Source: Octopus vulgaris (taxonomy: Eukaryota). Taken from it: DNA of 64,000 nt. This document shows positions 20,166 through 59,800 of this stretch, piece by piece. The stretch covers positions 14,260,001 through 14,324,000 of the forward strand of contig OX597843.1 of the NCBI GenBank assembly GCA_951406725.2, written 5' to 3'. The notes under the pieces were generated by a model, which was not told where the DNA came from, ran no database searches, and saw only the letters and a list, made by a program, of their open reading frames with translations. Each line of letters begins with the position of its first letter. Positions within the stretch are counted from its first letter, which is position 1. Both the position numbers and the translations under genes were made by a program.

Positions 20166-20211
20166 GTGAGTGGGAGGGGACAAAGCCATTCCACTTGTGA
20201 CCATCACATAT

Positions 20212-21478
20212 ATGGCTGCTGTTGCTACCAAGTCTAGCTACCATGTAGAGGTCTCCCTCATTGGCTCATACATACATATATACATACATAAGAGAGTAGG
20301 GTGTGATTTGAGGGAGATTTGGCTGTTATTTCTACCAGGTCTAGCTACCATGTAGAGGTCTCCCTCATTGGCTCATACATACATATATACATACATAAGA
20401 GAGTAGGGTGTGATTTGAGGGAGATTTGGCTGCTATTTCTACCAGGCCTAGCTACCATGTAGAGGTCTCCCTCATTGGCTCATACATACATAAGACAGTA
20501 GGGTGTGATTTGAGGGAGATTTGGCTGCTATTTCTACCAGGTCTAGCTACCATGTAGAGGTCTCCCTCATTGGCTCATACATACATATATACATACATAA
20601 GAGAGTAGGGTGTGATTTGAGGGAGATTTGGCTGCTATTTCTAGCAGGTCTAGCTACCATGTAGAGGTCTCCCTCATTGGCTCATACATACATATATACA
20701 TACATAAGAGAGTAGGGTGTGATTTGAGGGAGATTTGGCTGCTATTTCTACCAGGTCTAGCTACCATGTAGAGGTCTCCCTCATTGGCTCATACATACAT
20801 ATATACATACATAAGAGAGTAGGGTGTGATTTGAGGGAGATTTGGCTGCTATTTCTAGCAGGTCTAGCTACCATGTAGAGGTCTCCCTCATTGGCTCATA
20901 CATACAATTATACATACATAAGAGAGTAGGGTGTGATTTGAGGGAGATTTGGCTGTTATTTCTAGCAGGTCTAGCTACCATGTAGATGTCTCCCTCATTG
21001 GCTCATACATACATAAGAGAGTAGGGTGTGATTTGAGGGAGATTTGGCTGCTATTTCTAGCAGGTCTAGCTACCATGTAGAGGTCTCTCATTGGCTCATA
21101 CATACATATATACATACATAAGAGAGTAGGGTGTGATTTGAGGGAGATTTGGCGGTTATTTCTAGCAGGTCTAGCTACCATGTAGAGGTCTCCCTCATTG
21201 GCTCATACATACAATTATACATACATAAGAGAGTAGGGTGTGATTTGAGGGAGATTTGGCTGCTATTTCTAGCAGGTCTAGCTACCATGTAGAGGTCTCC
21301 CTCATTGGCTCATACATAAGAGAGTAGGTTGTTGTATAAGGGAGATTTGGCTGTTATTTGTAGCAAGTCTAGCTACCATGTAGAGGTCTCCCTCATTGGC
21401 TCATACATACATATATACATACATAAGAGAGTAGGGTGTGATTTGAGGGAGATTTGGCTGCTATTTCTACCAGGTCTA
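20212..21478. repeat. Minisatellite, ~107-bp unit, ~12 copies
   Basis: Unit CTAGCTACCATGTAGAGGTCTCCCTCATTGGCTCATAC...GTGTGATTTGAGGGAGATTTGGCTGCTATTTCTA; unit length varies in the (TACA)n part. Confidence 0.95.
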
Positions 21479-37944: not shown

Positions 37945-38797
37945 TCCCTGTGCTGGTAGCATGTAAAAAGCACCATCCGAACATGGCCGATGCCAGCACC
38001 GCCTTGACTGGCTTCGGTGCTGGTGGCACGTAAAAAGCACCAACCGATTGTGGTCGCTGCCAGTGCCGCCTTGACAGGCTTCTGTGCCGGTGGCACGTAA
38101 AAAGCACCATCCGAACATGGCCGATGCCAGCACCGCCTTGACTGGCTTCGGTGCTGGTGGCACGTAAAAAGCACCAACCGATAGTGGTCGCTGCCAGTGC
38201 CGCCTTGACAGGCTTCTGTGCCGGTGGCACGTAAAAAGCACCATCCGAACATGGCCGATGCCAGCACCGCCTTGACTGGCTTCGGTGCTGGTGGCACGTA
38301 AAAAACACCAACCGATTGTGGTCGCTGCCAGTGCCGCCTTGACAGGCTTCTGTGCCGGTGGCACGTAAAAAGCACCATCCGAACATGGCCGATGCCAGCA
38401 CCGCCTTGACTGGCTTCGGTGCTGGTGGCACGTAAAAAGCACCAACCGATTGTGGTCGCTGCCAGTGCCGCCTTGACAGGCTTCTGTGCCGGTGGCACGT
38501 AAAAAGCACCATCCGAACATGGCCGATGCCAGCACCGCCTTGACTGGCTTCGGTGCTGGTGGCACGTAAAAAGCACCAACTAATCATGATCGCTGCCAGC
38601 TTCCCCTGGCATGTGTGTCGGTGGCATGTAAAAAGCACCCACTACACTCACAGAATGGTTGGCGTTAGGAAGGACATCCAGCTGTAGAAACTCTGCCAGA
38701 TCAGACTGGAGCCTGGTGCAGCCTCCTGGCTTCCCAAACCCCAGTCGAACTGTCCAACCCATGCCAGCACGGAAAACGGATGTTAAACGATGATGAT
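37945..38797 (+). mobile_element. RTE-like 3' end with an expanded internal 135-bp tandem repeat (~4.5 copies)
   Basis: Near-identical dimeric units, each containing two GGTGGCACGTAAAAAGCACC subunits, then the normal tail. Confidence 0.85.
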
Positions 38798-43883: not shown

Positions 43884-44654
43884 CTGCAAAGAGAAAACAG
43901 CATTCATTACATACACACACACAAATATCGTTCACAGACGAGATCCAGACATTCTCCGTAGAGAAGATTCAAGCTTAGACTCCGATGTCTTTACAGGGGA
44001 TCATTCCACAAGGTAAAGAAATGCAATAAGAGGGGCCAGGTTGAGCAGGCATACAGGTAATATGTTCTCCTCTTGTAAACAAGACCCCCAAAAACATTGG
44101 TTTTATATAAATGAACAAGCTGTTTGTACGTTCACAAAATTCTAATCAACAAATTCAAGAAGCAAATGAAAGTGCGAATAATAATGAATGCGAATAGGAA
44201 AAATTGGATACATCAAGTATATTAAACATAAAAAATTATATTTAATTTGTTTATCCTCATAACTGTGCTCTAATTGAGCTAAGTTCCAATTTATAATTTC
44301 AGTGGAGGCAATACCAGCGGAAAACTAGAGGAACATGGCCTATTATCCAGTAGAACATTCAATATATATGTGTGCAATTTCATTGGACATTAATAAATCA
44401 ATATAAAGTTCCTGATAACACAGCACGAAAACACACAAGTATATGAACTTATAAATATTCAATATTTAAAATACGTTGGCATTATAAATATATGTTTCTT
44501 ATATGTTTTCCGCTGGTATTGCCTCCATTGAAATTTTATATATATATATATATAAATTAGAAAACCCCCCCACCTTTTATCAATTCAAAATGAACAATTA
44601 AATTACACCATCTAGAAAATTACATATAATAGAAATATTAAACATAGAAGGGAT

Positions 44655-48578: not shown

Positions 48579-49239
48579 TGTATATATATATATATATAAC
48601 AATAATAATAAAGGGTAAAATTAATTAACTAATTAGTAATTAATAATTTTACCAAGCAGTGTTCAGTATGTAAAAGGACCACTTATGGTAAACTTAAACA
48701 TTACTTTATATAATTAGGGTTCAGCAAAAAAATTTGCTTTACCACATACTGAACTTTTAGAAATAGCAGCCAAAGAATTTAGCTATTTAGCTATATATAT
48801 ATATACATATATATAATGAAAACGAATGGTGAATAGGAAGGGGGATCCCCTTCTCTCCCTTCCTACCACCTATATCCATTGTCATGGAACCTCATCCCCA
48901 AAAAACAAAAACAATGTTCTCCTCTTGTAAACAAGACCCCCAAAAACATTGGTTTTATATAAATGAACAAGCTGTTTGGTACGTTCACAAAATTCTAATC
49001 AACAAATTCAAGAAACAAATAAAAGTGCGAATAATAATGAATGGATAAAAAGATTTTTTCCCCAAAATTCTGGCTACATTTTTTTCTCAATATTCAAGTG
49101 TTAAGTGTGGTTAAGTACACCACACTTAACACTCCATACATCAGTTCCTACCCTGGATAAAATAGATCGCTAGCAACATTTTCTTTTTGTGGCAAAATAT
49201 GCCCCTAATTCAATAAAATTATGAAGGTTACTCTGATTA

Positions 49240-55432: not shown

Positions 55433-55853
55433 AACGTAAAGTATACTAGCCATCTGATTATGGCTAACCACTAAGGGTGGGTGTTACTGTAGCTTGTAGC
55501 CCCAGGAGAACATCGTCTCCAGCTGGCTTTAGACACACTTTCTGTGCCCTTATGTGACAGTGACAGTGGTTGCTGGGAAAAACATTAAATAGATATTCGC
55601 AAACAGGTCTCTCCTCATCGAAAACTGGTGATTGCCGTACGTTGACAAGAGGGCCGTACATTGACAAGAGGCAAATTACCTCGAAACTGCAGTCCGTGCG
55701 TATCACTTAGGTTTATGAGAGAGGGATGACCTCCCTTTGCAAATACCATAAGGGCAAAGCCAGCTGGAGACGATGATCTCCTGGGGCTAAAAGCTTCAGT
55801 AACACCCACCCTTAGTGGTTAGCCATATTGAGATGGCTAGTATACTTTACGTT
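55433..55853. repeat. Inverted repeat with ~98-bp arms (55433-55530 and 55756-55853)
   Basis: AACGTAAAGTATACTAGCCATC...CCAGCTGGCTTT against its reverse complement, few mismatches. Confidence 0.8.
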
Positions 55854-55954: not shown

Positions 55955-58917
55955 CAGATTCCACTATTGCGCCTACTGCTGCTCCGGGACGACAAGATAG
56001 ACGAGATGGACGGTGACACTTTCGAATGTTCAGACTCATTTCGGTTGTTCTGCTGAACCGGTTTCAATTCCTTGCCTTTCTCAAACGTCGTGCCGAGCGG
56101 TTGCAGGGGTGATAGCTTCTCAGCAGCAGGTCGCTTCAAGACAGACCTCAGTGGCAGTTCCGACGACCCCTGGGGTGACAGATCAGTGGGCGTCGACGGG
56201 GACTTGGCATCAGTGAGGTCACTGTTGGATGGGGACAGGGGGCAGCACACGAGCTCCAATGAGCTGCGACGAGAGCTGTTCTCGCTCGAGTGGATCGATG
56301 AGTTGCCACTCTTCACTTGATCCTCGATTGACCGGATCAGGTTCTTCACAGACATCGTTTGGTTCTTGCTGTCCATACGTCGGCCTTCTCGCAGCGCAAT
56401 CAACTCCCGATCGACTGAGCTAAGCATTTTACCTTTTAGCTCAGCAGGCGAGAAGATTGGCTTTGATGACCGTTCGTCCCAGGAGCGCAGTTTCACGCTG
56501 TCCAGCTCATCCTTTGCTTTGCTCAGCTGACTCTGCAACGACTTCAGTTTCTCCCGCATTGACGCATTCTCACAGACCAGCCGTTCCATATCCTCCTGGG
56601 TCTCTGTCCGGAAATCATTAGCAATGACCACTGCCACCTGCAGGTCTTTCTGGAACTGCTTCCACTCCTCGGATTCCTCTTCGTGTCGGTGATGGACGTC
56701 ATGCAGTTCTGACTCCATGACCGACTTCTGCCGAAGCAGGTCTTTGATTTCCTGTTGCAGTTCTTGGATCTTTGCATTGCACCTCTTCACATCGTCACGG
56801 TAACGGTCACAGTCCTGTTCCAGCTGTTCAATGTGGTCCCGCAGTGTTTCCTCTTCCTGCTGAATGTCCACACGTTCCTTCTGCATTGCGTCTACCTTCA
56901 GCTCCAGTTCAGAGATCCTTGTTTTGGAGTTTGACTTGAGGCCCCTCACCTCTTCCTCACGTGCCATCAGGGTCCCGCGCACTTTTTCCATCTCTCGTTG
57001 CAACAGCAAAATCTCTTCTGTCATGTTGGTCACCTTCATCTCCATCTCATCCTTCTCCTTCCGAGTGGTCAACAGCAGCTGTTCAAGGTCAGACTTGTTG
57101 TCCTGAGCCAACTGCATTTGCTCCAGCTTTTCGACCTTTGACCGCTCGCATTCCAGCATGGTCTTGTACCGGGTCATCTCAATCCTGTCGTCCGACAGTG
57201 ACTGCTTCATCTCGGAAATCAGTTTCTCCGAGTTCTCTTTCTCTTCGGTCAATGTATCCACCTCACCCTGGAGCAGCTGTGTTTTGTCCCGAAGGGCACT
57301 CACAAGTTCCTGTGCCTCTCGGTTCTCGGTGATGGCCATCTGGAGCTCATTCGAATACTCGTCCTGTTTGCGCAGCATCTCTTCTCGCTCGATCGATGCA
57401 CTCTTGAGCAAATCAATCATTTGTTGTTCTCGCTCTGTGCTGTTTATCAGACTGCTGTTGATCAATAATGACTTCAGGTGCTCCAGCTGGGTGCGACAGT
57501 GCTCCAGCTTCTCAGTCTGCGTGCACAGCGACTCAAGCACGACGCCTCGTTCGTCTGCAAGCTTCTCGTTATCCTCAGTCAATTCGTTCACCATGTCCTG
57601 GAGATCGCTAAGTTCCTGCAATGTTGCCTGTAGTTCCTCGTTAGTGCTGTAATGAGTCTCTTCCATCTGAAGGATCCGCTCCGTGAGGCACGCCACCGAC
57701 ACCTCACTCATTGCGTCGCTGCTTTTGTTGCTCTGTTTGTCCCAGCCGACATTGTCCAGCGACAGCTCCGAGGGGTGTTCTGGTGTGCCACACAGGTCAT
57801 CCAACGTCAAGCCCGGTTCGGACATGGGATAGTCGTAATGCCTCGGACAAGGTTCTCGCAGAGAGTCAAAATTGGATAGATTATCACAACTTATGCTTGA
57901 CGGCATCACTTTGCTAGCAGGTTCACTTTGGTTTGACGATGGTGGACTTGGGGTCTTCTTTGGCATGGAAATTTTCTCAGCATCGGGGAGTTGCTCAATA
58001 GAGATACCAAATTCCTTTAAGCGTTCTTGAAGAACTTTGTTCTGATTCCTAAGCAACTCACATTCCTCTCGAAGATCCTGAGATGGGATTTGTTCTTTAA
58101 GATTCCTTATCTCGTACTTGTGCCTCTCAATCTCTGCTTTCCGCCCTTCAGTGATCTGGATCAATTCTGAAATGCGGTTTTCCAGGGCCTTTTTCTCACG
58201 CTCAAAATTGGCAAGCAGCTCGGCATTGTACGCCATCACATCAGCCGGTGCCGAAGTCCTCTTACGTACCGTCTTATCTTTGGTCATGCTTTGTGAACTG
58301 TGTGCCCGCTTCATCGAAGAGTGGGTCTTGCCACTGGAGTGTAAACCCGCCGACCCCGTCGTGAAAACGCCTTTGCCAGTTTTATCAATGTTCTGGGTAC
58401 TCGATGCTTTGCGGATGGTTGAATTTACACCTGTGGCAGTCCGTCCACCTTTGGTCGTCGTTGACGACGAAGATGTCGTCGTCGTTGTAGCTGCTGTCGT
58501 TGACGATGTGGTGATTGTTGCCGAAGTCCCAGTCGGGGCCGGTTTCGCAAACACCACATTCTTCTCCTTCTCTTTGAGGACATTCTCCTTGTTGCTGCTC
58601 GTCTTGCTAACGCCGGTCCCACCGCTGTTTACCTTTGGTCTGTCCGGTAACAGAGACAGCTGCTTCTTCTTCTTCTGCTGTTGGTGGGTGGTGAGGTTTT
58701 CGTGGCTTTTGCTCAGATATTGTTTACTGAGTGGGGCACCCATTATTTTTCTTGAGGACGGTGTGGATGTAGAGATGGTGCTAAGTCCGGAGTTCTCAGA
58801 TTTCGATCGCATCGGTGCCACCGTTTCGGTGGCTGTCGTCATTGTCGTGGTGGTGGTGGTGGTACTGTTGCTGCTGACTACAAACATCTTGGAGGGCCCT
58901 TTCTCTTGCTTCTTCAT
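55955..58917 (-). CDS. SPECC1L: Cytospin-A / SPECC1L-like protein, large coding exon (S/T-rich N-terminus and long coiled coil)
   Basis: 988-aa ORF with SPECC1-family motifs SEVSVACLTERILQMEETHYSTNEELQATLQELSDLQ and EEWKQFQKDLQVAVVIANDFRTE. Acceptor TTTTACAG (exon starts 58941); donor TG|GTGAGT, phase 2. Confidence 0.93.
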
Positions 58918-59065
58918 GGTAAGAACCTTCTGGCCAACTTTCTGTAAAAAAAAAAGAAAAAAAAAGACAAGTTATTAAACAATAGCAAAAAAAAAAAAGA
59001 GAACACCAAAAACAAAAGGACAAACTAAAAAAAAAGGGACGCTGGAAATAGTAACGACCCCTTAA

Positions 59066-59286
59066 ACCTTTAGCATTTAAACCGGCCATATCCGGCCAAA
59101 AGTATTCTGCCTGTTTTATGTCCAAACTGGCCAGATTTGGTCTCTCACACCAACCCCACAATATCACTTTAAAAATTAACAGCTTCCTCATCAAAATCTC
59201 ATAAATACAAGATAATGCAAGATTAGCTCAAACCAATGTGGATAAAAAGGGATTAGTTTTGGCAGAATAATGCGACCACTAAAGGG
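59066..59286. mobile_element. TTAA-flanked MITE (piggyBac/Kolobok-type target)
   Basis: TTAA-ACCTTTAG...CTAAAGGG-TTAA short TIRs with TTAA on both sides. Confidence 0.6.
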
Positions 59287-59369
59287 TTAAATGACAAAAT
59301 GGTTGCATGATGGCATGTGCCAAATGGGGACTGGGCTGGAATAACTGTATCCACATAACTACATCCACA

Positions 59370-59582
59370 CCAGAAGGTTCTTACCATGAAGAAGCAAGAG
59401 AAAGGGCCCTCCAAGATGTTTGTAGTCAGCAGCAACAGTACCACCACCACCACCACGACAATGACGACAGCCACCGAAACGGTGGCACCGATGCGATCGA
59501 AATCTGAGAACTCCGGACTTAGCACCATCTCTACATCCACACCGTCCTCAAGAAAAATAATGGGTGCCCCACTCAGTAAACA
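59370..59582 (+). repeat. Perfect 213-bp inverted duplicate of 58721-58933 (cytospin 5' UTR, ATG and first ~65 codons)
   Basis: Base-by-base reverse-complement comparison shows no mismatch; explains ORF 59386-59694 (MKKQEKGPSK...). Confidence 0.95.
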
Positions 59583-59800
59583 TAAAGAACTTCTTTCAGT
59601 TTCCGTCTACCAAATCCATTTACAAGGCTTTGTTGGCCTGGGGCTAAGTAGGAGACACCTTGACCAAGGTGCTGAGCACCGAGATGGAACTTGAAACCTT
59701 GTGGTTGGGAAGTAAACTTCTTACGACATGGCCATCCCTACACCTACACACACATATCCTATATGCATGTACCTGTCTGGCTTCTCCTACTGTATTTCTG

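Follow-up and report, generated by a model that had tools for sequence, protein, structure and literature searches.

An exact inverted copy of the start of the large cytospin-A coding exon lies in the intron just upstream of that exon, and it occurs in material carrying two species labels. The reading that we favour, with some reservation, is that a single episode of DNA repair or replication, with several template switches in succession, produced this copy, that it has been tolerated as a near-neutral change, and that the hairpin predicted for the pre-mRNA gives at most partial and incidental editing by ADAR. In what follows, the window is the whole 64-kb stretch of DNA that was analysed, which is free of N, and the exonic and intronic arms are the two copies listed with the neighbouring features in Table 1. 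As the initial annotation had claimed, the intronic arm is the reverse complement of the exonic one at 213 of 213 nt; the match cannot be extended at either end, and it is the longest exact inverted match within the window, the runner-up being 106 nt long. When the region 59290-59600 was searched against its own genome (G000, 2.80 Gb in 227 contigs), in a search whose repeat counts are lower bounds, four matches were found, namely both arms and two matches of 33-49 nt at the microsatellite-like part. The arms themselves exist in exactly two copies genome-wide, one of which is the coding exon, and the earlier description of the copy as unique gene sequence rather than a transposon stands. For the same reason an origin as a transposon TIR was rejected, since these are not the ends of a multicopy element.

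Table 1. Features of the cytospin-A inverted repeat and its surroundings (window coordinates)
Feature	Position	Strand	Remarks
Coding exon of cytospin-A, about 3 kb	55955..58941	-	Donor inferred from protein match and GT consensus
Exonic arm	58721..58933	-	Residues about 15-85 of long cytospin-A; short-isoform ATG at 58917-58915
3′ splice site and polypyrimidine tract	58942..58965	-	From sequence and predicted fold; 8 nt ahead of the stem, within the loop
High-copy element of about 230 bp with short terminal inverted ends	59060..59292		3422 candidates, 90-94% matches
Two 14-nt near-tandem units (2 differences)	59341..59368	+	Second unit overlaps the 13-mer
6-bp direct repeat, left copy	59353..59358	+	Flanks the 227-bp insert; rough chance 0.002 over 8 registers
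13-mer, second templated piece	59359..59371	+	Copy of 58760-58772 (minus) / 59531-59543; 2 nt shared with the arm
Intronic arm	59370..59582	+	Exact inverted copy of the exonic arm; antisense to the exon in the pre-mRNA
6-bp direct repeat, right copy	59580..59585	+	First 3 nt are the last 3 nt of the arm
Old SINE head	59584..59738	-	Median 76%, best 82% identity to other copies; lacks the usual microsatellite and tail

The window was then compared with the assembled contigs of four public runs (X1, X3, X4 and X5), one of which may be its source. The left junction of the copy was present on contigs in all four runs (59262-59582 without difference in X1, and 59265-59399 in X3, X4 and X5), and the right junction (59553-59614, without difference) in three of them; in X5 it was not seen among the matches listed, of which 76% were read. 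Both junctions were thus on contigs of three DNA runs from three studies, one of which (X4) carries a second species label, and this speaks against the initial suggestions that the copy might be an assembly artefact or a private polymorphism. The left contig of X1 (321 nt) joins 108 flank letters to 213 arm letters. The other junction contigs hold 30 arm letters, as would be expected if contigs built from 31-letter words break on entering a two-copy repeat, and the exon contig stops at 58750, i.e., 30 nt into the repeat, in X1, X3 and X4, and runs to 58863 in X5. The depth of the two junctions was 69 and 67 against 62 for the exon contig in X3, and 37 and 39 against 45 in X4, where the arm contigs were at double depth (83 and 85); in X1 the depth was uneven (junction 18, exon 34). 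Junctions as deep as the exon in X3 and X4, together with the doubled arm depth in X4, fit homozygosity, and no joint of an empty site was found among 15 of the 18 joints. An artefact might have been suspected from the full identity of the arms and from the right-junction contigs, whose arm letters are one short of what 31-letter bridging takes, no contig spanning both arms; against the junction contigs of three studies, the long left contig of X1, the break inside the repeat in three of four runs and the doubled depth in X4, we give it hardly any probability. The inverted copy is real and likely fixed, and it is present in two close species.

Since the junctions occur under both the organism A and the organism B labels, the insert predates, or has crossed, the split between A and B. 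From its closeness, organism B would be O. sinensis, in which case the split is put at 2.5 million years (10.1101/2023.05.16.540928, in the part available). Run X5 is labelled as organism A and shares four variants with the organism B run X4 (at 58486, 58657, 59296 and 59329); its species label and its genotype may be mismatched.

By its protein matches, the gene is cytospin-A. The minus-strand ORF that starts at 58917 has 65 relatives, many of them named cytospin-A, it matches the Octopus vulgaris entry P0068 without a difference along 987 aa, and it differs at 3 positions from the O. sinensis entry and at 29, plus indels, from that of O. bimaculoides. The only Pfam match of the exon ORF was a sub-threshold one to Fez1. 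Two protein forms could be distinguished: entries P0002, P0068 and P0069 have 19 extra N-terminal residues, and P0067 and P0070 start at the 58917 ATG (four of these five named entries were compared); a more distant protein, P0003, has a similar N-terminal extension. Codons for the first 11 of the 19 extra residues lie on the minus strand at G000:C30:14408100-14408134, with a donor GT after them, and the 58917 ATG is codon 20 of the long isoform. As this previous coding exon lies about 89 kb upstream, the intronic arm is co-transcribed in the long-isoform pre-mRNA, and the initial proviso that transcription should start upstream of the arm, so that arm and exon share one pre-mRNA, holds for that isoform. 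The duplicated segment had been described as beginning with 16 nt of 5′ UTR followed by the ATG; the ATG does start the short isoform, but those 16 nt are coding in the long one, which starts upstream, and the AUG is not the sole start. The upstream coding exon (L014, G000:C30 about 14408100-14408550, minus strand) seems to have an acceptor of its own about 420 nt before its ATG, and from this the gene likely has further 5′ exons.

The exonic arm encodes a low-complexity, poorly conserved N-terminus and ends at the conserved YLSKSHENL motif; the mean identity of its residues to 19 non-cephalopod orthologues is 0.21-0.23, against 0.51 just downstream. Within it, a (GTG)n run (58847-58863) encodes a Thr tract that is one Thr longer in O. 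bimaculoides, a species that has several residue differences in this segment. The contigs of runs X4 and X5 break exactly at this run; its length may vary from one arm, allele or species to another, or the contigs may branch there to other microsatellites. In the intronic arm, the copied ATG opens a chimeric frame of 102 aa (59386-59694, plus strand) that runs from the cytospin N-terminus into the SINE. This chimeric ORF (59386-59691), used as a query for the arm in other species, had no match in two protein collections, in searches that were length-limited or would miss full-length cytospins too and so do not bear on its absence, and a protein search for short, possibly edited N-terminal cytospin fragments found none. 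A cryptic antisense exon in the arm was rejected as well: a donor-like site is present at 59384, but no acceptor passed a simple filter.

The spacer between the arms contains the acceptor AG (58943-58942), and the initial placement of the 3′ splice site in the loop is borne out. About half of this loop is occupied by the high-copy element, which had been absent from the first description and appears to be MITE-like. No special stability of the loop was detected (z -0.14). On the other side of the intronic arm lies the head of an element that we take, by resemblance, to be a SINE. Matches to this head numbered 188 in the 864 kb described below, 95 of them without a tail, 90 with a tail and 3 at locus edges. 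Given its low median identity to other copies (Table 1) and the commonness of head-only copies, the SINE is an old bystander; its truncation, which had been read as a sign of the event, is not diagnostic, and it was discarded as evidence for a template switch. Read-through from the SINE giving antisense RNA was also rejected, as a T4 run occurs 26 nt past the end of the SINE.

What the junctions do retain is an insert of 227 bp in two templated pieces (213 nt and 11-13 nt), between 6-bp direct repeats that the initial annotation had missed. It had noted that the 13-mer at 59359 recurs inside the duplicated segment, and this was confirmed, the other occurrences being at 59531 (plus) and 58760 (minus); a match to the arm of at least 13 nt ending at a given position was found for only 12 of 19,720 random window positions. 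The second templated piece and the flanking 6-bp repeat fit the template-switch origin that had been proposed, and the insertion fits a multi-step, MMBIR-like switch. Two nt of microhomology are seen at the internal switch, and the 6-bp repeat would imply 3 nt at the first; these microhomologies are reconstructed, as no ancestral empty allele was seen. In such an event, minus-strand synthesis would have left the intron at the end of the old SINE and been primed at 58721 on about 3 nt of microhomology, with 213 nt of the opposite strand then being copied; a jump to 58760 on 2 nt would have added 11 more nt, and a return to the intron with slippage would have duplicated the 6 bp. The two 14-nt near-tandem units would be the scar of this return to the original template. 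In the available parts of the two papers concerned, templated insertions that involve several switches and microhomologies of 2-12 nt build up among germline variants (PMC8421209), and local template switches create inverted repeats (PMC5453318).

The same 6-bp repeat could be taken as a target-site duplication, in which case the template would have been RNA, i.e., a cytospin RNA fragment that was retro-copied or captured during repair. Such a fragment would account for an insert that holds exon sequence only and that reads in the mRNA sense on the plus strand. However, the insert contains no exon-exon junction or poly(A) tail, its start lies 8 nt into the exon, and it is inverted, 436 nt away from its template and provided with a second internal templated piece, so that we consider RNA templating improbable and retain a template switch on DNA as the preferred origin.

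A broader sample gives a measure of how common such pairs are. It covered 864 kb, i.e., the window and 80 loci of 10 kb (20 adjoining the window and 60 at round coordinates on other stretches), and inverted pairs were scored at ≥80 nt and ≥85% identity, in complex sequence only, with simple repeats removed. In this sample, which is 0.03% of the genome and includes a window that was itself chosen for its perfect pair, there were 123 complex inverted pairs, 117 of them of the shared-repeat kind. The six that were not shared with other sampled loci were the cytospin-A pair, at 100% identity, and five others at 85-97%, of which the one that was checked (L067) turned out to be a repeat family. Local inverted pairs are common, but a perfect pair derived from single-copy coding sequence is not. 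The pair at L067:809-1793 (293 nt, 97%, spacer 402 nt) belongs to a family in which the identity of the other members to its arm is 83-93%, and it is possibly a local inverted duplication or conversion. Further local inverted pairs (85-96%), unshared with the sampled loci and with spacers below 1 kb, are at L084:7305-8515, L033:2885-3910 and L066:8043-8770. Within the window, an inverted pair at 55433-55853 (98 nt, 95%, spacer 225 nt), just downstream of the large exon, is common to other loci and on that ground likely represents element ends. The window also holds tandem arrays at 20210-21478 and 37948-38644, which repeat about every 107 and 134 nt and contain long exact internal matches (up to 216 nt), and a direct duplication (44062-44190 and 48914-49043; 130 nt, 98%, unshared with the sampled loci) in the cytospin gene near its 3′ exons.

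The absence of divergence between the arms was evaluated against the difference between A and B. Between organism B and the window, 7 of 308 intronic sites and 3 of 167 synonymous ones are different (about 2.1%), one of the seven intronic differences being found in X1 also. No A-versus-B substitution was seen in the arm, where 4.5 would be expected (P(0) about 0.02 for both lineages), with 60 arm bases read on intron-specific contigs and the rest collapsed with the exon copy; the depth there would allow one hidden substitution but speaks against two or more. Furthermore, the locus was picked for its perfection in A, and therefore only the B lineage gives a fair test, in which 2.2 substitutions are expected and P(0) is about 0.12, or 0.35 if one change is hidden by the collapsing. 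The conservation of the arm is suggestive, not significant after this ascertainment, and would be explained by conversion as well as by selection. With regard to conversion, the insertion might be older than it appears and functionless, with template switching, or gene conversion from one arm to the other, having recurrently kept the arm identical. The arms show zero differences and are 436 nt apart, template switching turns near-perfect inverted repeats into perfect ones (PMC5453318, partial text), and the background pair at L067 is more alike locally than to its family members over the arm; the junction scars, however, are still crisp, and the other five local inverted pairs have decayed, which leaves this a minor possibility.

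For the transcript, a fold of 931 nt (-559 kcal/mol) predicts the full 213-bp stem, in agreement with the earlier proposal of a stem over the ATG and the following codons. In the predicted loop, most of the polypyrimidine tract is left unpaired and the AG is paired in a weak local helix. ADAR acts on duplexes before splicing. There are 72 adenosines in the exonic arm, 55 of which would be recoding and 17 silent, and no stop is created by the 55 recodings. Under the preferred reading, i.e., a single template-switching event, the arm has probably persisted because it is placed 428 nt upstream of the acceptor and leaves the polypyrimidine tract largely free; it would pair only with codons of the variable N-terminus, none of which turns into a stop by an A-to-G change. 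Long duplexes are edited in clusters by ADAR (PMC9989829), and octopus editing is mostly in introns and 3′ UTRs (PMC9699675), according to the accessible portions of both sources, and some editing of the predicted duplex is plausible. When RNA-like runs were scored for word presence only, the kind of run being guessed and the runs being ranked by holding, 12 of 16 (5 studies) held 20-21 of the 36 arm words (0.56-0.58) and 4 held none; the prediction for an arm interior is 19.6 words. With about 10 adenosines per word, editing of 30% leaves about 2.5% of molecules unedited per 31-mer, and the presence of unedited arm words gives a weak hint against wholesale hyper-editing. The exon:intron duplex is likely to be incidental, the regulatory switch being a candidate only.

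Selection would imply more, namely that the arm is kept as an editing-complementary or regulatory element which recodes the N-terminus, edits the short-isoform AUG, or reduces expression by nuclear retention or by siRNA. Both species labels have the arm, its depth is that of single-copy DNA and no substitution was seen in it, it is co-transcribed in the long isoform, its perfect predicted stem offers the recoding adenosines counted above and ends where the conserved motif begins, and young low-divergence repeats are the main metazoan ADAR targets in the part of PMC9989829 available. Set against this, the conservation signal is not significant after ascertainment, long perfect duplexes lead to clustered hyper-editing and not to site-selective recoding (same partial source), and the arm words in the RNA-like runs, weak as they are with the kind of run guessed, are at the predicted level; we therefore regard selection as unlikely. 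We would place equally little weight on a more far-reaching scenario, in which a repair accident before the split created a perfect intronic complement in one step that became fixed and was held identical, and ADAR now recodes the cytospin-A N-terminus or silences the downstream AUG, shifting the isoform ratio. If true, this would be the birth of a cephalopod recoding cluster, caught in the act.

Literature on this locus, including cytospin-A in octopus, was not found, and the terms cytospin/SPECC1 had no match in the supplementary text of PMC8382921, PMC9068888, PMC9989829 and PMC9699675, these texts being small or partial. One study of recoding clusters describes introns as largely ignored (PMC8891338, partial text), and some pipelines keep uniquely mapped reads alone (PMC9699675, PMC9068888; both in part). 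A unique-mapping filter drops short reads that lie wholly inside a two-copy arm, so that existing editing catalogues may miss any editing here. Little is known of the RNA structures that underlie recoding in cephalopods, and this locus makes a definite prediction: editing should stay between 58721 and 58933, the remaining 2.8 kb of the exon serving as an internal control and species that lack the arm as an outgroup control. Were this borne out, it would show how recoding clusters can come into being; if not, a perfect exon:intron duplex of 213 bp would be seen to be able to escape ADAR in an animal that edits heavily. The cytospin-A exon:intron pair is a good and clean test case, and the 6-bp direct repeat and the two-piece anatomy of the 227-bp insert are new here.

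Known ECSs (e.g., that of the GRIA2 Q/R site) are short, imperfect, deeply conserved and site-selective, and often lie downstream of the exon. With ECSs and editing inducer elements (PMC3479170, PMC5654063; partial texts) the cytospin-A arm shares an intron segment that would pair in cis with a coding exon before splicing: it is in the same pre-mRNA in the long isoform, and its duplex with the exon is predicted. Unlike them, it is a long, perfect and literal copy, upstream and young, and it is a putative ECS only. The long, low-divergence intramolecular dsRNA predicted here is also a property of hyper-edited young inverted repeats (PMC9989829, in part), but one arm of the cytospin-A pair is single-copy coding sequence and not a transposon, and therefore editing would reach the protein. 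Drosophila hpRNAs (PMC10317233, PMC10292708; in the parts available) likewise derive from inverted duplication of a gene and have a predicted long stem; however, they are separate loci that act in trans, whereas splicing removes one arm of the cytospin-A pair, so that its predicted stem would exist only in nuclear pre-mRNA. The nearest likeness is to MMB-TI/MMBIR insertions (PMC8421209) and four-point switches (PMC5453318), which, in the available text, share with it a nearby reverse-complement template, more than one switch, a reconstructed 2-3-nt microhomology, a switch back onto the original template and germline persistence. The cytospin-A insert differs from the MMB-TI cases in its coding-exon template, its 213-nt length, its distance of 436 nt and its occurrence under two species labels. 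Among these systems, the locus behaves like an insertion of templated origin that generated an exon:intron inverted repeat, its membership among ECSs being putative.
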